Below, piece by piece: positions 551 to 13,234 of a stretch of DNA of 64,000 nt. The first letter of the stretch is position 1. Each line of letters starts with the position of its first letter. The stretch lies in the NCBI GenBank assembly GCA_048498795.1, contig JBEHXH010000013.1:24717-88716 (forward strand), read 5' to 3'. The notes under the pieces were generated by a model. The model was given only the letters and a program-made list of their open reading frames with translations, was not told where the DNA came from and searched no databases. Position numbers and translations under genes: made by a program. Source of the stretch: Verrucomicrobiota bacterium (GTDB taxonomy: Bacteria; Verrucomicrobiota; Verrucomicrobiia; Opitutales; Opitutaceae).

Positions 551-2314
<1,764 letters not shown>

Positions 2315-2455
2315 CGGGCCAGTGTCGCAGCACATTTACATACTCGCGAGCCTGCAATCGTGCCCGGTCGATTTTATCCAACCACGGCCGATATTTTCCG
2401 GCGAGTGGGCTTGCGCCGGGACTTGGCGGCCCTGTAGTTTTGTCCTTTCACACGC

Positions 2456-3472
2456 ATGAAGAAAGCGCTCATCACCGGTATCACGGGTCAGGACGGCTCC
2501 TATCTCGCCGAGCTGTTGCTCGAAAAAGGCTACGAGGTTCATGGCATCATCCGCCGCGCCTCGACCTTCAACACGAGCCGCATCGATCACCTTTACCGCG
2601 ACCCGCATGTGAATGGCGTGCGCCTCTTCCTGCACTACGGCGACCTCGCCGACTCGGTGCAAATGGTGAAGCTGCTCTACGACCTGCAGCCGGATGAAAT
2701 CTACAACCTCGGCGCGCAGTCACACGTGCGCGTGTCGTTCGACATCCCGGAATATACGGGCGATGTCGATGGCCTCGGCGCGCAGCGTATCCTCGAGGCA
2801 GTGCGCGAGGCGGGGCTGGTGAAGAAGGTCCGGTTTTATCAGGCGTCGTCGTCCGAAATGTTCGGCAAGGTCCAGCAGGTGCCGCAGGTCGAGACCACGC
2901 CGTTCTGGCCACGCTCGCCGTACGGCTGCGCCAAGGTCTACGCGTACTGGCTCACCGTTAACTACCGTGAGAGCTACAATCTCCACGCGTCCAACGGCAT
3001 CTTGTTCAATCACGAGAGCCCTCGCCGTGGTGAGACGTTTGTCACGCGCAAGATCACGCGCGCGGCGACCCGCATCAAGCTGGGCCTGCAGGACTCGCTC
3101 TACCTCGGCAACCTCGATGCCCAGCGCGACTGGGGCTACGCCAAGGAGTATGTCGAGATGATGTGGCTGATGCTGCAGCAGGACAAACCCGACGATTACG
3201 TCGTGGCGACGAACGAGACGCACAGCGTGCGCGAGTTCTGCCAAGTGACCTTCGATCGGCTTGGGCTCGATTGGGAGAAGTATGTGAAGTACGACCAGCG
3301 CTATGAGCGCCCTGCAGAGGTCGAGCTTCTCATCGGCAATCCCGCCAAGGCGGAGAAGCAGCTCGGTTGGAAACCCAAGGTGCTCTTCAAGGATCTCGTG
3401 CACATCATGGTCGATTCCGACCTCGAACTGGCCAAGCGCGAGGCGCAGATCGCGCAGTTGCCGAAGCCGTAA
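2456..3472 (+). CDS. gmd: GDP-mannose 4,6-dehydratase
   Basis: [34 protein letters not shown]... The N-terminal Rossmann GxxGxxG, catalytic YxxxK (YGCAKVYAY) and overall Gmd architecture of the SDR-extended family are present. 338 aa. Confidence 0.9.
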
Positions 3473-3480
3473 TTTTTTTG

Positions 3481-3554
3481 GGCCCACGAAACACACGAAG
3501 GGACACGAAAGCCGGAAGTGATTTGGTTTCGCGTCGTTCGTGTGTTTCGTGGGC
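3481..3554. repeat. hairpin element of 10-bp-phased CACGAAA/CACGAAG heptamers in the gmd-fcl spacer
   Basis: GGCCCACGAAACACACGAAGGGACACGAAAG ..loop.. CGTCGTTCGTGTGTTTCGTGGGC, an ~18-bp stem. Confidence 0.7.
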
Positions 3555-3566
3555 TAAAGGGATTGA

Positions 3567-4502
3567 ATGAAGCTCTTCATCGCAGGTCATAATGGCATGG
3601 TTGGGGCCGCGCTCGTGCGGCGGTTTTCGGCCCAGCCAGGCGTCACGCTTTTGCTGCGATCACGGCGTGAGCTGGATCTCACTTCGGCGGCGGCGGTGGA
3701 TGCGTTTTACGCCGCGGAGAAGCCGGACGTCGCGATCATCGCGGCGGCGAAAGTCGGCGGCATTCACGCCAACAACACGTACCCGGCGGAATTCCTCTAC
3801 GACAATCTGGCGATCGCGGCCAACACGATCCATGGTGCATGGCGCACGGGCGTGAAGCGCCTGCTCTTCCTCGGCAGTTCCTGCATCTACCCGAAGCATG
3901 CGCCGCAGCCGATGCCGGAGGATTGCCTGCTCACGGGGCCGCTGGAGCCGACCAACGAGGCCTACGCCATCGCGAAGATTTCCGGGCTCAAGCTCGCGCA
4001 GTACTACCGCAAGCAGCACGGCGTGCTCTTCCACTCGGCGATGCCGACGAATCTCTACGGCCCGGCGGACAACTACCATCTGCAGAACTCGCATGTGCTG
4101 CCCGCGCTGATCCGCAAGTTTCACGAAGCCAAGGTCGCGAATCGGCCCGAGGTTGTGGCGTGGGGTACCGGCAGCCCGAAGCGCGAATTCCTACATGTCG
4201 ACGACCTCGCGGAAGCCTGCGCTTTTCTACTCAAGCTCGATAATCCGCCCGACTGGATCAACGTCGGCACGGGGACCGATGTCACGATTCGCGAGCTGAC
4301 GGAAACGGTTGCGTCAGTGACCAAGTTTGGCGGCAAGGTCGTCTGGGATTCCACGAAGCCCGACGGCACGCCGCGCAAGCTCATGGACGTCTCGAAACTT
4401 TCCAGCCTCGGCTGGACGGCGAAGATCGGCCTGCGTGAAGGTGTCGATAAAGCTTACGCGAGTTTCCTCGCGGAGATGGCGGCGGGCACGCTGCGGCAGT
4501 GA
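3567..4502 (+). CDS. fcl: GDP-L-fucose synthase (GDP-4-keto-6-deoxymannose 3,5-epimerase/4-reductase)
   Basis: [19 protein letters not shown]..., and GSSCIYPK...[12 protein letters not shown] typical of Fcl/WcaG. Directly downstream of gmd. 311 aa. Confidence 0.9.
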
Positions 4503-4527
4503 AGTCGGTTTAACCGAGGCTGGATTT

Positions 4528-4587
4528 AACCGCGGATGAACTCGGATCAAGGCTTGCTCATCCGCGTCCATCCGAGTTCATCCGCAG
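4528..4587. repeat. hairpin element of 10-bp-phased CGGATGA/CGGATCA heptamers 3' of fcl
   Basis: GCGGATGAACTCGGAT ..22-nt loop.. ATCCGAGTTCATCCGC, a 16-bp perfect stem between convergent fcl and methyltransferase genes. Confidence 0.7.
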
Positions 4588-4659
4588 TTAAAAATCCTCC
4601 ACTAGATTGTGAGGTTCTCGTGAGGAGATGGCGAAACGCTCACGCGTTCCGCTACGAGA

Positions 4660-5418
4660 TCAGCTTTTCCCGAGACGGCGCTTTAGGCCCTTCAGCTTAA
4701 TGCGCCACCAGATTTTCAGCGAGTTCGCGAGGCTCGGGTAGTGGATCGAGCGACGATAGATGTGATCGAAATGATGCGCTAGCGATGCGTTGATCTTGAG
4801 GTCGTGCGTGCGCTTTTCGGGCAGTAGCAGCGCGAAGGCGAGACCGCCCCAGATCTGATCGCGGAAATCTTCCGCGGCGTTGAGCGTGCCAGGGACGAAG
4901 TCGAGTTCGACGACATGCACGTGAGGATTGCCCGCCCAGTCGGCGTCGGCGATCCCGCGGCGGCACTCCGGGTTGCCGCTGTCGTGCATGAGGACCCAGA
5001 GCGGCGACGTGGTCGGGCGGTACGCGAGCAGGGCATTTAGGTCGGCCTTCACGCCCTCATAACGATGGTCGCCATCGACGAGCGCGAAGTTCAGCGGCAT
5101 GCCGTTGGCCTGGCACTCGGAGAGGACGAGCGGGATGAGCTTTGGCGAATCGCCCGTGAGAAATTTCACGTTGGGCATCTGCGGCTCGAGGTTCCGGCGG
5201 ACGTCGGGCGAGATGTCGAGCGAGTACGTCAGCTTGGCGTGATCGCGGATCTGGCGGAGGCAGCCGCCCTCGCACGTGCCGATTTCGAGTGCCGCCACGG
5301 ACTGGGCGCGCCGCAGGACTTGGAGCAGAGCGCCCTTCTCGCCGTCCTGCATGAGCCAGAGCTGTTCGGGGCTTTTGGCGGGATAGAGCAGGGCGGAGAG
5401 ATCGTTCACAGTCTTCAT
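4660..5418 (-). CDS. class I SAM-dependent methyltransferase (CmcI/TylF-like O-methyltransferase family)
   Basis: MKTVNDLSALLYPAKSPEQLWLMQ...LEIGTCEGGCLRQI...LVDGDHRYEGVKADL is a SAM-binding fold of the cephalosporin hydroxylase/macrocin-O-MT type. The in-frame 565-aa ORF (to 6357) is rejected because its upper part is antisense to tatC. Confidence 0.5.
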   Translation of the reverse strand: MKTVNDLSALLYPAKSPEQLWLMQDGEKGALLQVLRRAQSVAALEIGTCEGGCLRQIRDHAKLTYSLDISPDVRRNLEPQMPNVKFLTGDSPKLIPLVLSECQANGMPLNFALVDGDHRYEGVKADLNALLAYRPTTSPLWVLMHDSGNPECRRGIADADWAGNPHVHVVELDFVPGTLNAAEDFRDQIWGGLAFALLLPEKRTHDLKINASLAHHFDHIYRRSIHYPSLANSLKIWWRIKLKGLKRRLGKS

Positions 5419-5535
5419 CGCTGGATAGAGGGGCGTGGCGCGGACCGTGGCCGGGCGGGGCGGGGATGAAAAGGCAAAACGGCGCGCGCAAAGTTTGCTC
5501 GCGCCGGGGCCTTTCGCGCCAAACGATGATCCCTC

Positions 5536-6522
5536 ATGGCCGACGTAGACTTCCTCCCTGACGACGCCGCCGAGGGCGGTGAGCGCAAATCCTTTTGGGA
5601 GCATATCAACGACCTGCGCCGCGCCCTCGTGCGCTCGGCGATCGCGATCGGCATCGCGCTGATCGTCTGCCTGTTTCTCGACGACAAGCTCGTGGCGATC
5701 CTCGAATACCCGCTGCGCCGGATGGACATCTTCGAGAAAGAGAAACCGACCGTGACCTTCCAACTCGGCGCGACAAAGTTCGGACCCTTCGAGGTGACGA
5801 AGGAAGAGTTTCCCGCGCTGCCGGACGGCGTCGCCCCGCGCGCGATTTACCACCTCGGCGTCATGCAGGTCGCCGACCAGCAGGTGCTCACGCTGAAGCT
5901 CGATCCCAACGGGACGCAGGACGACAGCCTCAAGGTGCGCCTGCACAACCTCGGGCCGGCGGAGGCGTTCTTCATCGCATTTCACATCGCGCTTTACGGG
6001 GCGTTCGTCTTGGCCGCGCCGTTTTGGATCTACTACATGGGTGGCTTCCTGTTGCCGGCGCTGAAGGACAACGAGCGTAAATCCATCCTGCAGTGGCTGG
6101 GGTGGGGCGTGTTTCTCTTTGTGCTCGGAGTGACGCTCACGTACTTCGTGCTGCTGCCCGTCGCGCTCAAGGCCTCCATGCAGTACTCCAATATCCTCGG
6201 CTTCGCGTCGACAGACTGGCGCGCGGAGGAATACATTCGCTTCGTCTGTAAGTTTATCCTCGGCATGGGTATAGGGTTTCAGTTTCCGCTGGTGGTACTC
6301 TTCCTGGTGAAACTCGGCATGCTCACATATCGCGACTTGGCGAAATACCGCCGGCATGTGATCGTGCTCGTACTGATCCTGGGTGCGCTGCTCACGACTC
6401 CTGAGGTCATCACGCAGGTCTCGATGGCGGTGCCGCTTTACCTGCTCTACGAGACCTGCATCTGGATCGCATGGTACTGGGACTGGAAGAAGCGCCGCGC
6501 GGGCGGGATCATCGAGACGTAG
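5536..6522 (+). CDS. tatC: twin-arginine translocase subunit TatC (with ~75-aa insertion in the first periplasmic loop)
   Basis: The N-terminus (FWEHINDLRRALVRSAIAIGIALIVCLF), six predicted TM helices and LLPVALKASMQYS...LLTTPEVITQ are TatC hallmarks. Length is 328 aa versus ~250 aa typical, and the extra segment EKEKPTVTFQLGATKFGPFEVTKEE...LKVRLHNLGP lies between TM1 and TM2. Confidence 0.8.
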   Translation: MADVDFLPDDAAEGGERKSFWEHINDLRRALVRSAIAIGIALIVCLFLDDKLVAILEYPLRRMDIFEKEKPTVTFQLGATKFGPFEVTKEEFPALPDGVAPRAIYHLGVMQVADQQVLTLKLDPNGTQDDSLKVRLHNLGPAEAFFIAFHIALYGAFVLAAPFWIYYMGGFLLPALKDNERKSILQWLGWGVFLFVLGVTLTYFVLLPVALKASMQYSNILGFASTDWRAEEYIRFVCKFILGMGIGFQFPLVVLFLVKLGMLTYRDLAKYRRHVIVLVLILGALLTTPEVITQVSMAVPLYLLYETCIWIAWYWDWKKRRAGGIIET

Positions 6523-6551
6523 TGTGGGGCGGTTTAGGCCGCACCCTTTTT
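6523..6551 (+). terminator. rho-independent terminator-like hairpin followed by T5 run after tatC
   Basis: GTGGGGCGGtttaggCCGCACCC followed by TTTTT, immediately 3' of the tatC stop. Confidence 0.5.
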
Positions 6552-6624
6552 AGCCACAGATTACACCGATGGGCACAGATAGCTGGCGCGTTTATCTGTG
6601 CCCATCGGTCTAATCTGTGGCTAG
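6551..6624. repeat. 31-bp near-perfect inverted repeat (one mismatch) with 11-nt loop, built from CACAGAT/CACCGAT units phased at 10 bp
   Basis: TAGCCACAGATTACACCGATGGGCACAGATA ... TATCTGTGCCCATCGGTCTAATCTGTGGCTAG. Confidence 0.8.
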
Positions 6625-6691
6625 GTTGGATGGCGCTTCGGTTTTTCGTCATTTGCAACTTAAGTACTAAAGTCCGCGGCCCACGCGCCGA

Positions 6692-9319
6692 TTGTCGGGT
6701 TTGATGTCTGTTGGTGCTCCAAGCCCGGTGGAGGCTCCGTCAGCGCTCGGCGAAGCCGGTCTCGCGACCGATGTGTGGCCGCGCGTTGGCGAGCGCTGGC
6801 GTTCCATCTACGAAATTCGCGAGCAGTTGTCGGAGACGACTGCCGGGCGCTACTGGCGCGCCGCGCGGATCGACACCGACGAAAACGTCGTCCTCCGCAT
6901 CTTTCACACGACCGTCGATGAAGCCCGACCCGGCGCGTGGGACGGCATCCTTGCCCTCGACTCTGCGCACCTGCTGCGGGCGCGTCCGGCGTTCATGGTG
7001 GAGAACTGCCGCGTCGAGGAATTCGAAGCGCCGGTGGGCACCGCGCTCAGCCGCTGGCGCCGACAGTCGGGTGGTATTGACGCAGACGGCATCGAGGCGC
7101 TGGTGCGCCAAGTCGCCTCGGTCCTTAGTCAATTGCACGGCGTCGGTCTCGTGCACCTCGGCCTGCATCCCGACTCGATTTACGTGCGCGAGGAGGATGG
7201 TAAGCTGCATTTTGTCGTCGGCGCGCTGGAGTCGGTCACACCGTTTGAGCGAGACCGATTGATCCCGGCGCCGGTCGATCCCTTCTACGCTCCGCCCGAG
7301 GCCGCAGGACTCTTTCAGCACTCGCCCGGCCCCATACTGCGGGCGTGGGATTGGTGGACCCTCGGACGTGCGGTGCAGGAAGCGATCCTCGGCTGCCATG
7401 TGCTCGGCCACATCCTCGAACGCGAAGTGATTCCTGCTACGCCGGAGCTCAATGCGCGCATGGAAGCCATGCTGCTCGAGCGCGACGCCGCCGGTCTTCG
7501 CGCGGGCGCGGTCGAAGCGATGCCCGTGCAGGACAAGCGGGTGGACAACCTTCTCCGCGGCCTGCTCACGTCCACCCGGGACGGCCGCTGGGGCCGCGAG
7601 GAAATCGACGGCTGGCTCAAGCGCGATACCATCAAGCATCGCTACGGCCTGCCGCGCACGGAGCGTCTTTTTCGTCTTGGCGAGCGCCCCCTCACGGTGC
7701 CCGAGGCAGCGGACCTGCTGCGTACGCCGGACCTGTGGCCCGAGATCGTGCCGCACGTGTTCAATCTCAAGCAGCCCGGGATGCTCGCGCATTTCCTCGA
7801 TGACTCGCACGCGCACCGGTCGTTTCTCGAAAAACTCACCGACGCGCTGAAGCTCGCGGAAAGCGACGCGCTCAAGTCGTATCCCTCCGCATTGGTACGT
7901 GAAGTGGTGGCGGCGCTGGCGCTGCAGTACCTCGCAGGCAACGAATTCATCTGGCGCGGACGCCGCACCGATACGGCTACGATCCGCGAAATCCTCGACG
8001 CGCCCGGCGACCCCAAGGCGCAATTAGAGCTCGCGCGGCTCTTCAGCCAACGCGTGGTTGTTGGGCAAATCCAGCGCTGCGATGCGGAGTCGGCGCAGAT
8101 TCTCGGCGACCTCGGGCGGGTGGGTGGCGAGGCGGAGGCGCTCGCCATCTCGTCGGGCTGGCTGACGATGACCGACACCACCGGCATCCTCCGGCTCTGG
8201 TCGACGGTGCTGCTCTCCCAAGCTGCGATGCAGGGTGCGCGGGCCAATCTGAAGAAGCGCTTCGCGTGCTGCTCGAATGCCGCGATGAACAAGATTTTCC
8301 AGCTCGAAGCGCCCGCTAGACTCGACCTCGTGGTGTTGGCGTGGGCGGACCGCGAGCCGGCGAAGTTTGGCTTTGTGACCCACGCGGAGTGGGCCAAGCG
8401 GCGTCTCGGCGAACTGCGCGCGACCGGCGACAAGTACGCGATGGCGCTTTTCTGGCGGCGTCTCGGCAAGGCACTCTCCATTGGCACGTGGCTTTTCTCC
8501 CGCTGGCGCATCCTCGTGCCCATCTGGGTGGGCGTGATCACGCTCGGGCTCGTTGCACATCCTGGCCCGCGCTGGGCGTTTGTCGCGATCCTGCCCGCAT
8601 TGCTGGCAGCGGCATGGCGCGTGTTTTCGCAGAAGATGCATGCGTCCCAGACGAAGCTCTTTGCGCCTGCTGCTGCACCCTGGGGCTGGCGCGATGGCGT
8701 GAAACGCTGTCGTACTGAGGCCGAGGCCGTTGCTCCCGGGCTCGATGAAGCCGGACTCCTACGCATGATCCGTGAGATCAATGCCGACATCGCCAAGCTC
8801 CAGATCGAGCCGAAACCAGAGGTGATCGTGATGCCGCCAAAATTTCATAGCACATGGGTGGCCGTGATCGGCAGCTGGATCGCCGTTGGGCTCGTCGTTG
8901 CCACGCATGGATGGGAAATAAAGATCCACCCGCCGAGCATCGCGGCATTTCGGGCTGCATGGGCGGCGAAGCCTCCTCCCATCGACGAAGAAGCGGCGAA
9001 GCCGATCAAGGTCACCTGGCCGCACAAGGCCGTGGGCGAGATCCATGTCGTGAATCTCAAGGGCCATGAGGAAGCCACGCCCGAGCAGCGCGCGGCGGCG
9101 ATGGCGGCGGGGCACAAGATTGCCGATCCCTATTTGCCGGAGACGATCACGCTCTTCATCGCGGTGCGCGTGCCGACCGAGAAGGAATACGGCTTCATGA
9201 TGTACAACGGCAAGACCGGCCAGCTCGCCAACCAGCACGTGTACCTCACGATCTACGAGCCGCTCCCGCGCATGTGGATCGAGCTTTCGGGCGAGCAGGC
9301 GATCTACATGATCCCGTAA
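6692..9319 (+). CDS. membrane-anchored protein kinase-like protein, predicted pseudokinase, with ~300-aa C-terminal extracytoplasmic region
   Basis: The kinase catalytic-loop region LHGVGLVHLGLHPDSIYV has the canonical HRDLKPxN replaced by HLGLHPDS, so the catalytic Asp is absent. An APE-like FYAPPEA and a subdomain-IX-like WDWWTLGRAV are present. There is no Gly-rich loop and VLRI sits where VAIK would be (Lys to Arg). Hydrophobic segments at about aa 590-640 and aa 715-735 predict TM anchoring. Confidence 0.6.
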   Translation: MSGLMSVGAPSPVEAPSALGEAGLATDVWPRVGERWRSIYEIREQLSETTAGRYWRAARIDTDENVVLRIFHTTVDEARPGAWDGILALDSAHLLRARPAFMVENCRVEEFEAPVGTALSRWRRQSGGIDADGIEALVRQVASVLSQLHGVGLVHLGLHPDSIYVREEDGKLHFVVGALESVTPFERDRLIPAPVDPFYAPPEAAGLFQHSPGPILRAWDWWTLGRAVQEAILGCHVLGHILEREVIPATPELNARMEAMLLERDAAGLRAGAVEAMPVQDKRVDNLLRGLLTSTRDGRWGREEIDGWLKRDTIKHRYGLPRTERLFRLGERPLTVPEAADLLRTPDLWPEIVPHVFNLKQPGMLAHFLDDSHAHRSFLEKLTDALKLAESDALKSYPSALVREVVAALALQYLAGNEFIWRGRRTDTATIREILDAPGDPKAQLELARLFSQRVVVGQIQRCDAESAQILGDLGRVGGEAEALAISSGWLTMTDTTGILRLWSTVLLSQAAMQGARANLKKRFACCSNAAMNKIFQLEAPARLDLVVLAWADREPAKFGFVTHAEWAKRRLGELRATGDKYAMALFWRRLGKALSIGTWLFSRWRILVPIWVGVITLGLVAHPGPRWAFVAILPALLAAAWRVFSQKMHASQTKLFAPAAAPWGWRDGVKRCRTEAEAVAPGLDEAGLLRMIREINADIAKLQIEPKPEVIVMPPKFHSTWVAVIGSWIAVGLVVATHGWEIKIHPPSIAAFRAAWAAKPPPIDEEAAKPIKVTWPHKAVGEIHVVNLKGHEEATPEQRAAAMAAGHKIADPYLPETITLFIAVRVPTEKEYGFMMYNGKTGQLANQHVYLTIYEPLPRMWIELSGEQAIYMIP

Positions 9320-9388
9320 GGGCGGCGGAGAATCATTTCCGGAGATTTCGGTTGCGCCGGTCGCGATCCGCTTTGCACTGGGAGCCGA

Positions 9389-10549
9389 TTGGCAGCTAAC
9401 GGATATCAAGTCATCGCCCGCAAATGGCGCCCGCAGACCTTCGACGATGTCGTGGGGCAGGACCATGTCATGCGGACGCTGCGCAACGCGATTGTGCGCG
9501 GCCGTATCGCGCATGCCTATCTCTTCGTGGGACCGCGCGGCACGGGCAAGACCTCGACGGCGCGCATCTTTGCCAAGGCGCTCAACTGCACCGATGGGCC
9601 GAAGGCAGATTTTTCGCTCGATGACCCGGCGGTGAAATCGATCAGCGACGGGACGCATCTCGACGTGATCGAGATCGACGGTGCGTCGAACAACGGCGTC
9701 GAGCAGGTGCGCGATCTCCGCGAGACCGCGCGCTACGCGCCGGCGCAGGGCAAGTTCAAGATCTACATCATCGACGAGGTGCACATGCTCTCGACGGCGG
9801 CGTTCAACGCGCTGCTGAAGACCCTCGAAGAGCCGCCGCCGCACGTGAAGTTCGTCTTCGCGACGACGGACGTGCAGAAGGTGCTCCCGACGATCCTATC
9901 GCGCTGCCAGCGCTTCGACCTCAAGCCGATCCCGGCGGAGCTGATCGTGGAGCGGCTAAAAAAGATCGCAGCCGACGAGAAGATCAAAGCCTCCGACGCA
10001 GCGCTCGCCTGCATCGCACGCATGGCGGACGGCGGCATGCGTGATGCGCAGTCAGTGCTCGACCAGATGATTTCCTTCTGTGGTGCCGAGATCGCCGAGG
10101 CGGACGTGCTCGATGTCTATGGTCTCGTCGCCGCAGAGAAGGTCGCAGAACTCGGCGCGGCGGTAGCCGCGGGCGATCACCAGAAGATTGTTTCCATCGT
10201 TGATGATTGCGACGCGGCCGGTCGCGACCTCGTGCGCCTCCTGTCGGATCTGCAAGGGCTCGTGCGCACGGCGCTGCTCGACTCGATCGCGAAGGGCGGA
10301 CGTAGCGAACAGCTCGGCGTGGCGATGACCACGGAGCAAATCACGCGCCTCCTTGATGGCCTGCGCGAAGGTGAATCGGGCGTGAAGCTCGGGCTAGCGG
10401 AGAAAATCAATTTCGAAGTCACGCTGCTCAAGGCCGTCGAGGCCAGCCGCGCTCGCGCGATCGATTCGCTCATCAAGGAGCTCGCTGCTCTCGCCGATGA
10501 AGCGCCCGCGGCCGTGGGCGCGGACGACAGCGAAAAAAAAAAGGGCTGA
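9389..10549 (+). CDS. dnaX: DNA polymerase III subunit gamma/tau, zero-frame product (gamma-like, domains I-III only)
   Basis: [16 protein letters not shown]..., Walker [21 protein letters not shown], a zinc-module region, and the clamp-loader SRC motif ([10 protein letters not shown]). The 386-aa product ends ...DDSEKKKG* two codons after an A10 run. Confidence 0.9.
10532..10543 (+). promoter_or_regulatory. candidate programmed -1 ribosomal frameshift / slippage site, GAA AAA AAA AAG
   Basis: The A10 homopolymer (10533-10542) forms the classic dnaX-type slippery sequence A AAA AAG. The -1 frame has a stop at 10498-10500 and is then open to 10995. A potential stem-loop GTACGGCttctcGCCGTAC lies ~27 nt downstream. 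Confidence 0.5.
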
Positions 10550-11232: not shown

Positions 11233-12219
11233 TCACTTCTTTTGCTCGGCGGGCGGGGGGGACTTGGCTGGAGTGTCAACCACGGTGGGGATACCGACGT
11301 CGACCCGACCCTCTTTCACGCGACGGTTGAGCGCGGCTGGCTCAGGCATGTCTTTGCCGAAGTACGGACCGGCGCTGAGGATCAGCGCGGGGAGCGACTG
11401 AGTCATGTTCACGCCTTGCGCGCTCACGGTCATGCGCGTGCGCCAGAGGAGCACGCGCTTTTTCTGAGCGATGGCTTGATAGTCGTACGCGGAGGCGACG
11501 ATGAAGTAGATATCGCTGTTCGCTTGATCTACGAGAAACTCGTTGGTCGGGCTCTGGCGGCGGAAGACATTGACCGGATTCGCGAACTCAAAGGCTTCGT
11601 CGCTCATGATCGCCTGGCCACCGGGGACGCGGCTACCGGCATCGCTGGACTGCTTCATGATGGTGGCAGCTTCGAGCGCCTCGACGAATTGGTGGGTAAA
11701 CTTCACGCCGCCGACGAGGAGGGCGCGGCTGACGAGATTGTCGACCTTGGCCTCGTTGCTCACGGTGGGATTCTCCGCGTCGTCGATCAGTGTGCTGTGA
11801 GAGCCCCAGCTGTAGAAGATTGCGAGAGTAGGCGGTTGCTTGGCTTGCTCGGCGTCAAGGTAGCCGGCGGAGGAGAGCGAGCGGTGGAGGATGGCGTCGA
11901 GCTGTTCAGTCGGCGGCTTGGTTTCGCCGGCGGGGGCGTGGCCGATGGTGAGGTAGCCGGTGCAGATCGCAGTATAGTAGGCGGGGCTGCTCGACGAGGC
12001 GGGAGGGAGTTTTTTCCCGGCCTCGGTCATCTCTGTCATCACCGTGATGTCGAGCGAGGGATTCGATTGGAAGGATTTCGGCAGGATGTTGAACACCCAG
12101 CCGGAGTCCTTGGCGTTTTTCACCTTGGGGACCTCGTCGAGTTCACCGGCGGCGAAGGCCGTAGTGAGCGGCAAAAGCAGCACGAAGCTCAAGCAACGAA
12201 GCACAGCAGGGGTAGTCAT
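11233..12219 (-). CDS. secreted protein of unknown function, paralogue family A member 1
   Basis: The start is chosen at MTTPAVLRCLSFVLLLPLTTAFAAG (signal peptide). It shares YY..A..GY...G, a ...SAGYLDAE... region, DIYFIVASAYDYQ and WRTRMTVSAQGV...LPALILSAGPYFGKDMPE with the adjacent gene 12263-13234 and with 58837-59745. Confidence 0.6.
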   Translation of the reverse strand: MTTPAVLRCLSFVLLLPLTTAFAAGELDEVPKVKNAKDSGWVFNILPKSFQSNPSLDITVMTEMTEAGKKLPPASSSSPAYYTAICTGYLTIGHAPAGETKPPTEQLDAILHRSLSSAGYLDAEQAKQPPTLAIFYSWGSHSTLIDDAENPTVSNEAKVDNLVSRALLVGGVKFTHQFVEALEAATIMKQSSDAGSRVPGGQAIMSDEAFEFANPVNVFRRQSPTNEFLVDQANSDIYFIVASAYDYQAIAQKKRVLLWRTRMTVSAQGVNMTQSLPALILSAGPYFGKDMPEPAALNRRVKEGRVDVGIPTVVDTPAKSPPPAEQKK

Positions 12220-12262
12220 CGGAGTAAGGTGACGGCAGGTGAGCGCAGAAAGTTTCGCCGGA

Positions 12263-13234
12263 TCATTTTGCCTCAGGCTTGCTTGCCGGTGGCTCGACCA
12301 CGGTAGGAGCGCCCACGCCGACGGTGCCGTCGCGCACGGCCAAGCGGCGAATGATCTGGCTCTCAGCCATGTCTTTTCCAAAATAGGGCCCGGCGGCTGC
12401 GATCAATGTGGGGAGGGCGAGGTCTTGGCCGACGCCTTGCGCGGCGACTGTCATGCGAGTGCGCCAGACGAGTTCACGGTGATTGACGGCGACAGAGTGG
12501 TAGTCGAAAGCCGAAGCAATCACATAGTAGCAATCGCTGGTTGATTGCGTGAGAAGGAACTCGCTTTTCGGATTCGCGTCTTGAAAGCGCTTCACCGGGT
12601 CATCGAGCGCATTCATTATGGCCACGGCTTGGGCTGCGCCAAGATTGGTCCCGCCATCGCCAGGACTCAAATGGGTGCTCGAGGCATCCTGCACGTCGGC
12701 GGATTGACGCAGGGCGCTGGCGAGATCGGCGGCAAATTTGGTGCCGCCCACGAGCACCGCGCGTTCAAGGATATTGGGCCGAGGGTCGGTGTAAAATACG
12801 CCATTGATGTCCGAATCCGGTAAATAACTCGTCCCCCAGAAATAAGTGATGAGCAGACTGGGTTGATGCTGCGCGTCGGCCGGCAGGTAGCCGCTGTTGG
12901 CGAGCGAACGCTGGAGCAGCTTGTCGATATCCGATTCGCTCAGGCGCTTCTGCACAGGTACGCGACCGTAAGCCCGGTATCCACTATTGCGCGCCACGTA
13001 ATAAATCGGGTGATCTTTTTCGCCCGGAGGCAGTTTTTTTCCGAACAGCGAGACTTCGGTGATGATCGTGAGCTGGAGGTCCGGATTTTTCTGAAACGCC
13101 TTTGGCAGAAGGATGCGCGAAATATCGCGCCGCGGTGGCTCAACGGGAGTAGCATCCTCGGCCCGCGAGAGCAGTGGCAGTATCGCGAGGCCGAGAGCAT
13201 ATATCCGCCAAAGTCTGGTATGGTGGAGAACCAT
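12263..13234 (-). CDS. secreted protein of unknown function, paralogue family A member 2
   Basis: N-terminal signal peptide (RIYALGLAILPLLSRA). Clear similarity to 11233-12219, including WRTRMTVAAQGV...LPTLIAAAGPYFGKDMAE and CYYVIASAFDYH. The two form a tandem pair. Confidence 0.6.
   Translation of the reverse strand: MVLHHTRLWRIYALGLAILPLLSRAEDATPVEPPRRDISRILLPKAFQKNPDLQLTIITEVSLFGKKLPPGEKDHPIYYVARNSGYRAYGRVPVQKRLSESDIDKLLQRSLANSGYLPADAQHQPSLLITYFWGTSYLPDSDINGVFYTDPRPNILERAVLVGGTKFAADLASALRQSADVQDASSTHLSPGDGGTNLGAAQAVAIMNALDDPVKRFQDANPKSEFLLTQSTSDCYYVIASAFDYHSVAVNHRELVWRTRMTVAAQGVGQDLALPTLIAAAGPYFGKDMAESQIIRRLAVRDGTVGVGAPTVVEPPASKPEAK

Follow-up and report, generated by a model that had tools for sequence, protein, structure and literature searches.

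Pseudokinases have a protein-kinase fold without at least one of three residues: the VAIK lysine, the HRD aspartate and the DFG aspartate (PMC12599244). Bacterial pseudokinases are almost unexplored experimentally (PMC12599244), and seven families have been named from actinobacteria, proteobacteria and cyanobacteria: ActPs1, ActPs2, ActPs3, GLW, CP1, DYD and DLHK (PMC12599244; 10.1101/2025.01.12.632604). A 2025 review also discusses two functional examples, EssB/YukC and MviN (PMC12599244). Here we describe a gene at positions 6704–9319 of a 64,000-nucleotide stretch of DNA (the window) from an Opitutaceae member of the Verrucomicrobiota (contig JBEHXH010000013.1), which encodes an 871-amino-acid (aa) protein with a degenerate kinase-like domain and predicted transmembrane (TM) segments. 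We consider it probable, at roughly 0.6, that this protein is a polytopic inner-membrane pseudokinase acting as a non-catalytic scaffold or transducer, derived from an active kinase associated with FHA and PP2C proteins.

By analogy, EssB/YukC of the type VII secretion system (T7SS) of Firmicutes (PDB 6Z0F; PMC12599244) appears to be the closest functional counterpart. It likewise has an N-terminal cytoplasmic dead kinase fold, in which the Gly-rich loop is degraded along with all three catalytic motifs, and a membrane anchor; its C-terminal part is extracytoplasmic, as presumed for the window protein, and EssB serves as a non-catalytic scaffold. EssB, however, is about 440 aa long, with one TM helix, a shortened activation loop and a T7SS locus, whereas the window protein, at 871 aa, keeps its activation segment at full length, carries a further helical domain of 290 aa and has three TM segments. 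No secretion-system gene was found next to the window gene (the neighbours in the family are gmd, fcl, tatC, dnaX or prfB instead), and no EssB/YukC chain was among the best 60 PDB sequence matches. The MviN/MurJ-linked pseudokinase of Mycobacterium (ActPs3; PDB 3UQC; PMC12599244) is likewise membrane-tethered and lacks the K/D/D residues; it has an extracytoplasmic C-terminal domain after its TM helix and serves as a docking platform (PMC12599244). The window family differs from it in an activation segment of normal length (about 20 residues, from GGL 173–175 to APPE 196–199) and in having no MurJ fusion. In function the window protein would most resemble EssB/YukC and the MviN pseudokinase, both membrane-tethered dead-kinase platforms.

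In the proteobacterial GLW family, GLW replaces HRD and LLLL/W replaces VAIK, where the window family has HL(N/G)LRP, VVLR and GGL instead. The conserved Lys-to-Arg exchange in VAIK is the sole trait in common with the actinobacterial ActPs2, which carries insertions of ~30 aa between β3 and αC and of ~200–250 aa in the activation loop; alignment and model place neither in the window family. No motif set published in the review or in the text of the bacterial serine/threonine kinase atlas (10.1101/2025.01.12.632604) equals VVLR / HL(N/G)LRPxT / GGL, and neither text mentions Verrucomicrobia, bacteria of the Planctomycetes–Verrucomicrobia–Chlamydiae group or Opitutaceae. Further literature searches returned no account of an Opitutaceae pseudokinase family; some of its members may sit in one of the 42 families of the atlas. 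These proteins make up a previously undescribed family of transmembrane pseudokinases in bacteria, restricted to one lineage and set apart from the published families by the descriptions of those.

A kinase fold in the N-terminal third

The gene lies on the + strand, with the ATG at 6704 as its likely start and an in-frame TTG at 6692 as an alternative start upstream in the same open reading frame (ORF), which runs through 9319. A database protein (P0001 in our collection of public sequences) is 100% identical, begins at the same ATG and has the same 871 aa; the ORF is real. Residues are numbered from this ATG. The features on which the kinase assignment and the loss of catalysis depend are:

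6704–9319, + strand: complete coding sequence, 871 aa plus stop codon
6791–7618, + strand: pseudokinase domain, residues ~30–305, a bilobal protein-kinase fold by AlphaFold2 (AF2) model, Foldseek and family profile
6896–6898, + strand: Arg65 at the position of the β3 VAIK lysine (VVLRI, residues 62–66), placed by the family alignment and by alignments to MNK1 and HIPK2
7154–7177, + strand: degenerate catalytic loop HLGLHPDS, residues 151–158, opposite HRDLKPxN
7220–7228, + strand: Gly173-Ala174-Leu175 at the DFG position, with the metal-binding Asp lost (family consensus GGL)
7289–7369, + strand: invariant C-lobe signature from APPE (196–199) to WDWWTLGR (215–222), common to active relatives
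7499–7522, + strand: family-specific loop R266-A-G-A-V-E-A-M273 (RAGxVExM), nearly invariant and present in active relatives too

A preliminary description of this DNA, made from the letters and translations, had assigned the N-terminal ~300 aa to a kinase fold and suggested inspection against the Pfam Pkinase profile (PF00069). Against that profile the window protein alone scores 19.8 bits (E 5.6e-4, residues 107–299), below the 31.7-bit cut-off, so the assignment needed independent support. PF00069 matches are precomputed for most homologs. An AF2 model built from 108 homologs reached a mean predicted local distance difference test (pLDDT) of 93.2 and a predicted template-modelling score of 0.70. 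When compared with the PDB by Foldseek, the model matched at least 2000 kinase chains, among them Aurora A, CaMKII, ULK1 and PDK1, with target template-modelling scores (TM-scores) of 0.70–0.76 over ~290 columns at 13–18% identity. The family profile found 502 kinases among PDB sequences at E ≤ 1e-3, with ULK3 at the top (2e-12). In the alignment to MNK1 the family consensus 'glvHlnlrPetif' stands opposite GIAHRDLKPENIL, so that 'HlnlrPet' faces 'HRDLKPEN', and 'vvlrv' stands opposite 'YAVKI'; in the alignment of the window protein to HIPK2, VVLR faces VAIK. Judging by the model and the profile, the kinase fold is genuine and no chance resemblance, and the early assignment is borne out.

Family-wide loss of the catalytic residues

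The motifs quoted in the preliminary description, including HLGLHPDS, APPE, WDWWTLG and VLRI (within VVLRI), are all present, and its claim that the catalytic determinants are all substituted extends to the whole family, as the residue counts from an alignment of 120 members show. At the β3 lysine position we counted Arg in 94, His in 5, Leu in 4, Ser and Val in 3 each, and Lys in 0. In the catalytic loop of the window protein Gly153 replaces the Asp, His155 the Lys and Ser158 the Asn. The HRD-Asp position holds Asn 49 times, Gly 39, Ala 17, Ser 7 and Asp 3 times across the family; Arg is found in 75 members at the loop Lys position, and Thr (40), Val (19), Ala (17) and Asn (13) at the loop Asn position. 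The three DFG columns read Gly (92) or Ala (24), then Gly (113), then Leu (93) or Phe (20). Where the Gly-rich loop GxGxxG is expected, the window protein has LSETTAGRYW, and the aligned members vary at these columns without a shared arrangement of Gly; no other Asp or Lys is invariant in the catalytic-loop or DFG columns of the alignment.

By alignment, then, the window protein lacks every hallmark of a catalytically competent Hanks-type kinase (β3 Lys, HRD Asp/Asn, DFG Asp and GxGxxG), and a kinase fold combined with a catalytic-triad loss that is kept family-wide classes it as a pseudokinase in the sense defined above. Neither a catalytic Asp or Lys intact elsewhere nor a failure of the kinase-fold assignment, the two findings named beforehand as speaking against this, came to light.

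The homolog search gave 149 matches, of which the full-length ones have 860–970 aa and 30–42% identity; in all, some 120–180 protein clusters have the catalytic losses in common. Eighteen columns are invariant and about 50 nearly so; P197, P198, E199, W215, D216, W218, G221, R222, Q225, G268, G286-L-L288, R295 and W296 belong to one or the other class. The C-lobe is the best conserved region, with a mean identity to the query of 49% against ~30% elsewhere. Ten independent ortholog pairs, analysed by the Nei–Gojobori method, gave ratios of non-synonymous to synonymous substitution rates (dN/dS) of 0.11–0.23 for the whole gene and 0.05–0.13 for the kinase-like domain; in the four closest pairs dS was unsaturated (0.29–0.72). 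Purifying selection acts on every domain. The low dN/dS of the kinase-like domain indicates that the protein is functional and maintained and is not decaying.

Domain anatomy and membrane topology

The remainder of the protein was divided on the basis of AF2 secondary structure, hydropathy and family statistics:

7619–8497, + strand: all-helical middle domain, residues 306–598, predicted cytoplasmic, conserved and common to active relatives
8504–8629, + strand: TM hairpin, TM1 at ~601–618 and TM2 at ~622–642, with a short low-charge HPGPR turn
8630–8845, + strand: ~70-aa loop joining TM2 to TM3 (643–714), two helices, motif W..WRDG..RC..E, predicted cytoplasmic
8846–8914, + strand: TM3, residues ~715–737, from hydropathy and the model
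8915–9010, + strand: linker, residues 738–769, rich in Ala, Pro, Lys and Glu, with low pLDDT at 755–765
9011–9316, + strand: C-terminal globular domain, residues 770–871, β-α-β5, presumed periplasmic

Members of the family conserve all three hydrophobic segments (mean Kyte–Doolittle 1.66–1.79), in keeping with the two or three TM helices of the preliminary description; their supposed place directly after the first ~300 aa did not hold, as a helical domain of ~290 aa intervenes. The C-terminal domain, put there at ~230 aa, proved smaller: ~135 aa follow the last TM segment, and ~100 of these are globular. The middle domain had been missed altogether, along with the order and sizes of the domains. 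No signal peptide precedes the kinase-like domain, which should for that reason be cytoplasmic. The TM1–TM2 hairpin obeys the positive-inside rule, with Lys/Arg-rich flanks and a charge-poor turn; it is predicted to bring the chain back to the cytoplasm, from which TM3 would carry the C-terminal domain out. The linker that follows TM3 measures 28–93 aa, depending on the family member, and in the C-terminal domain W772, Y810, V823, P853 and W858 are invariant or nearly invariant.

Neither non-kinase domain has a described relative in the databases searched. Foldseek of the non-kinase part of the AF2 model against the PDB gave nothing at E ≤ 1e-3; Pfam has no family in the middle or C-terminal domain, and profiles of the C-terminal domain and of the whole non-kinase module gave only scattered single-member matches to domains of unknown function; and the best PDB sequence match of a C-terminal domain profile was at E 0.037, nothing meaningful.

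Active and intermediate relatives

Homologs that keep the catalytic motifs, which are rare and which the preliminary description had also missed, are P0232, P0245, P0247, P0249, P0252 and the kinase encoded at 5728–8436 of locus L073, the last from a metagenome-assembled genome (MAG) labelled Acidobacteria. In these active relatives VFIK, HRDLKPxN and D(Y/F)G are intact. They carry the C-lobe signature of the family (YAPPE, (W)DWWxLGRxxQE, RAGxVE and LLRGLLTSxxxRW) and have the helical middle domain and C-terminal TM segments in common with it, and the C-terminal β-α-β5 domain is absent from them. Apart from the L073 kinase, they are the weakest full-length matches of the module profile, with only the middle domain aligned. 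From these shared motifs and domains, the active relatives are true homologs of the window family in which the catalytic motifs have been kept. A word-index search started from them returned mostly generic kinases. Their genes lie in the following arrangements (unk415, a 415-aa protein of the cassette, has no Pfam match):

L076 (protein P0245): FHA-like – PP2C – kinase, with overlapping reading frames
L078 (P0247), 949–8535, and L079 (P0232), 678–8005: unk415 – ClpB-like AAA+ – Fer4_12/radical-SAM-like – FHA – PP2C – kinase, adjoined by transposases
L073, ~1500–8436: unk415 – AAA+ – Fer4_12 – FHA – kinase
L080 (P0252), 4224–9692: transposases – 265-aa protein – kinase – unk415-like – AAA+

Three active relatives have a PP2C gene immediately before them; four have an FHA-domain gene directly upstream. 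Transposase genes of IS21, Mu or rve type flank the cassette in three loci, and its AAA+ protein matches the PADLOC models PDC-M37B (4e-28) and DolB (1e-18). By gene content the cassette resembles a mobile and perhaps defence-related system, one that PADLOC fails to recognise in its entirety; a resemblance to candidate anti-phage systems is a tentative suggestion. Whereas the active relatives adjoin FHA and PP2C genes in the unk415/AAA+/Fer4_12 cassette, the window family sits in a housekeeping backbone with gmd, fcl and tatC. The PP2C, FHA, AAA+, Fer4_12 and other cassette genes had no tblastn match in the window or in 70 loci of the main family.

A second degenerate subfamily of Opitutaceae (P0224; L071 5590–7797; L072 415–3318) has an N-terminal CxxC...C...CC zinc-ribbon-like motif, reads HRGLSLDT and GGW with Arg at the β3 position, and lacks the C-terminal β domain. 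It is encoded after unk415 – AAA+ – Fer4_12, without an FHA or PP2C gene, and is a possible evolutionary intermediate. The metagenomic protein P0205 (1101 aa) likewise combines degenerate motifs (HLRISP and AGL) with an N-terminal zinc-ribbon-like motif; Sel1/TPR-like repeats replace the β domain at its C terminus. An unrooted, distance-based neighbour-joining tree of 567 columns split active from degenerate proteins with a bootstrap of 100/100 and placed the zinc-ribbon protein and P0205 at the base of the main family. This topology agrees with catalysis having been lost once, and the phospho-signalling partners after it. Hanks catalytic residues are the ancestral state; the direction of change, from active to dead, is taken from this, as the tree itself is unrooted. 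A more detailed scenario, which we offer as speculation, is that the Opitutaceae family is the domesticated dead descendant of the membrane kinase of the mobile cassette, which would have been captured by the core genome, shed FHA and PP2C, gained the periplasmic domain and then become an envelope-linked scaffold, with the zinc-ribbon subfamily as the intermediate.

Distribution and genomic context

Opitutaceae are soil and freshwater bacteria. Every named source in the homolog search was Opitutaceae, Opitutae or Opitutus, and a scan of one genome per GTDB species gave 74 loci, almost all from Opitutaceae, Opitutales or unclassified Verrucomicrobiota MAGs; the main family was found in 70 species-representative loci. 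Opitutus terrae and Nibricoccus aquaticus, both culturable, encode homologs. Against 1.84 billion cluster representatives the profile of the non-kinase module matched just 181 proteins at E ≤ 1e-3, and in nearly all full-length matches the module begins at residue ~305–320. On these searches the family is small and confined to one lineage. Several genomes have two or three paralogs of the pseudokinase gene. Tandem copies directly follow gmd-fcl in L013 (5797–8550 and 8975–11830) and L015 (3132–5789 and 5674–8556), and a dispersed third paralog group (L006, L008, L016, L035, L038, L053 and L061) has no gmd-fcl linkage. No second paralog was found within the 64-kb window.

In the window, gmd (GDP-mannose 4,6-dehydratase), fcl (GDP-fucose synthase) and then tatC lie upstream of the pseudokinase gene at 2456–6522. 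About half of the loci, with both deep clades represented, keep the order gmd – fcl – (tatC) – pseudokinase. The conserved backbone further includes valS upstream, prfB ~34 bp downstream in 31 loci and, also downstream, an ATP-grasp-like gene; dnaX, downstream of the pseudokinase gene in the window, does not keep this position in other loci. Between tatC and the pseudokinase gene lies:

6529–6551, + strand: terminator-like hairpin (6529–6542) with a T-run, followed by an inverted repeat at 6551–6623

The repeat has 31-nt arms that are 97% complementary around an 11-nt loop and is the sole copy in the window (0 expected by chance). This arrangement suggests that the pseudokinase gene is transcribed apart from tatC. 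The repeat itself might act as a strong terminator or an attenuator, serve as a palindrome for protein binding, or be an element of the repetitive extragenic palindromic type. We considered a functional operon with gmd-fcl or tatC and rejected it as the main reading: the backbone holds valS and prfB, the hairpin and inverted repeat precede the gene, and dnaX is not conserved. With neighbours that are unrelated housekeeping genes, the linkage reads as inherited core-genome order and not as an operon.

Proposed function and alternatives

On the scaffold or transducer model, the N-terminal ~600 aa would lie in the cytoplasm as a kinase-fold domain unable to transfer phosphate, tightly associated with the helical domain. 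The TM hairpin and TM3 would anchor the protein, and a flexible Ala/Pro-rich tether would carry the ~100-aa domain into the periplasm. The C-lobe surface (APPE, WDWWxLGR, RAGxVE and LLRGLLxxxxxRW) and the middle domain may together provide a platform on which a cytoplasmic partner docks or is controlled allosterically, and the membrane and periplasmic parts would localise or modulate this platform in response to a cell-envelope cue. Such a protein could have arisen from an active FHA/PP2C-associated membrane Ser/Thr kinase that lost catalysis and settled in Opitutaceae as a core gene, standing alone and inherited vertically. We infer both the role and the membrane topology. The earlier view of a dead scaffold or receptor resembling a eukaryotic-like Ser/Thr kinase, and not an enzyme, gains support from the family-wide catalytic loss and from the dN/dS of the kinase-like domain.

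Several points weigh against this model. The conserved neighbours are unrelated housekeeping genes, none of which points to a partner. The extracytoplasmic position of the C-terminal domain, already claimed in the preliminary description, agrees with the clear positive-inside pattern of the TM1–TM2 hairpin but is insecure, with TM3 ambiguous (K+R 1.7 before and 2.3 after). Structural relatives of the non-kinase domains were sought in the PDB only. Finally, SelO, SidJ and WNK, once called pseudokinases, proved to be enzymes with relocated or re-used residues (PMC12599244).

This last precedent invites the reading that the kinase fold keeps an activity, such as relocated phosphotransfer, AMPylation or glutamylation, through other conserved residues. 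Near the former active site, Arg65, Arg75, Arg103, Glu105, His145, His151, Asp/Asn192 and Glu199 are indeed nearly invariant, and the kinase-like domain is under strong constraint. Yet the Gly-rich loop has gone together with all four canonical positions for catalysis or metal binding, no invariant acidic residue is left for metal in the catalytic loop or at DFG, and conservation peaks in surface motifs of the C-lobe and not in the nucleotide-binding elements of the N-lobe; the PP2C and FHA partners of the active relatives are gone as well, as expected if phospho-signalling was abandoned. We regard an atypical enzyme as improbable. A dead pocket that binds a nucleotide or anionic molecule through Arg65 and Arg75 without turnover, and so toggles the scaffold, would be compatible with the scaffold model, and a GDP-sugar is conceivable as its ligand. 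The β3 Arg is conserved, as in ActPs2, for which non-canonical ligand binding has been suggested (10.1101/2025.01.12.632604), gmd-fcl precedes the family gene in both deep clades, and the active relative P0245 has a ManC-like gene ~3 kb downstream (L076 13011–14072). The presence of valS, tatC and prfB in the same backbone, however, looks like inherited gene order, the terminator-like hairpin and long inverted repeat separate the gene from tatC, and the dispersed paralog group (cluster 4) has no gmd-fcl neighbour, which together leave such a switch a rather unlikely addition to the scaffold model.

Membership in an anti-phage system, as a sensor or effector of PD-T4-6, BREX PglW, MADS or Mokosh type, could be read from weak PADLOC matches to PD-T4-6 (E 3.5e-6, the best of them), PglW and MkoA, from NCBIfam matches to PglW and MAD6, and from the cassette of the active relatives, where the ClpB-like AAA+ protein with its DolB and PDC-M37B matches stands beside transposases. 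But the NCBIfam scores are 14.3 bits against a cut-off of 990 for PglW and 14.4 against 460 for MAD6, and the PADLOC and NCBIfam matches span just 45–90 residues around the catalytic-loop helix, a generic kinase similarity. The gene is also a single, vertically inherited core gene amid housekeeping genes, the window protein is catalytically dead, and neighbour comparison and the cassette tblastn, without a gene-by-gene PADLOC scan, found no defence-type neighbour in the window flanks or in the 70 main-family loci. With scores this far below the cut-offs and such a context we rejected membership in the PD-T4-6, PglW, MAD6 and MkoA kinases, and a defence role of the window protein is highly improbable. 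That the gene is a former kinase drifting towards a pseudogene with no function of its own might be argued from the loss of all catalytic residues and from the sub-threshold Pkinase score. Intact ORFs of 860–970 aa in more than 100 clusters, the invariant and nearly invariant columns, dN/dS of 0.1–0.2 in every domain and the retention of paralogs after tandem duplication leave it a negligible chance; column conservation and dN/dS effectively refute it.

Active and dead homologs with the same C-lobe surface and middle domain offer a natural comparison for the parts that are kept in non-catalytic signalling, and concrete constructs for binding-partner screens. What the family adds is non-kinase domains without Pfam or PDB relatives and extant active sisters in FHA/PP2C operons; the name 'serine/threonine protein kinase' given to some of its members is a misleading annotation. 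To specialists such a family will not be very surprising, yet it is a clean, testable case.

Other reading frames in the window

Two further observations concern ORFs on the minus strand. Adjacent paralogous ORFs at 11233–12381 and 12263–13234 encode 382 and 323 aa with hydrophobic, signal-peptide-like N termini and a common C-terminal motif, W-RTRMTV-AQGV...LP-LI-AAGPYFGKDM. A 565-aa ORF at 4660–6357 overlaps the plus-strand tatC (5536–6522) by ~800 nt; it is probably an artefact of high GC content, with only its 3′ part (about 4660–5400) likely to be a real gene.

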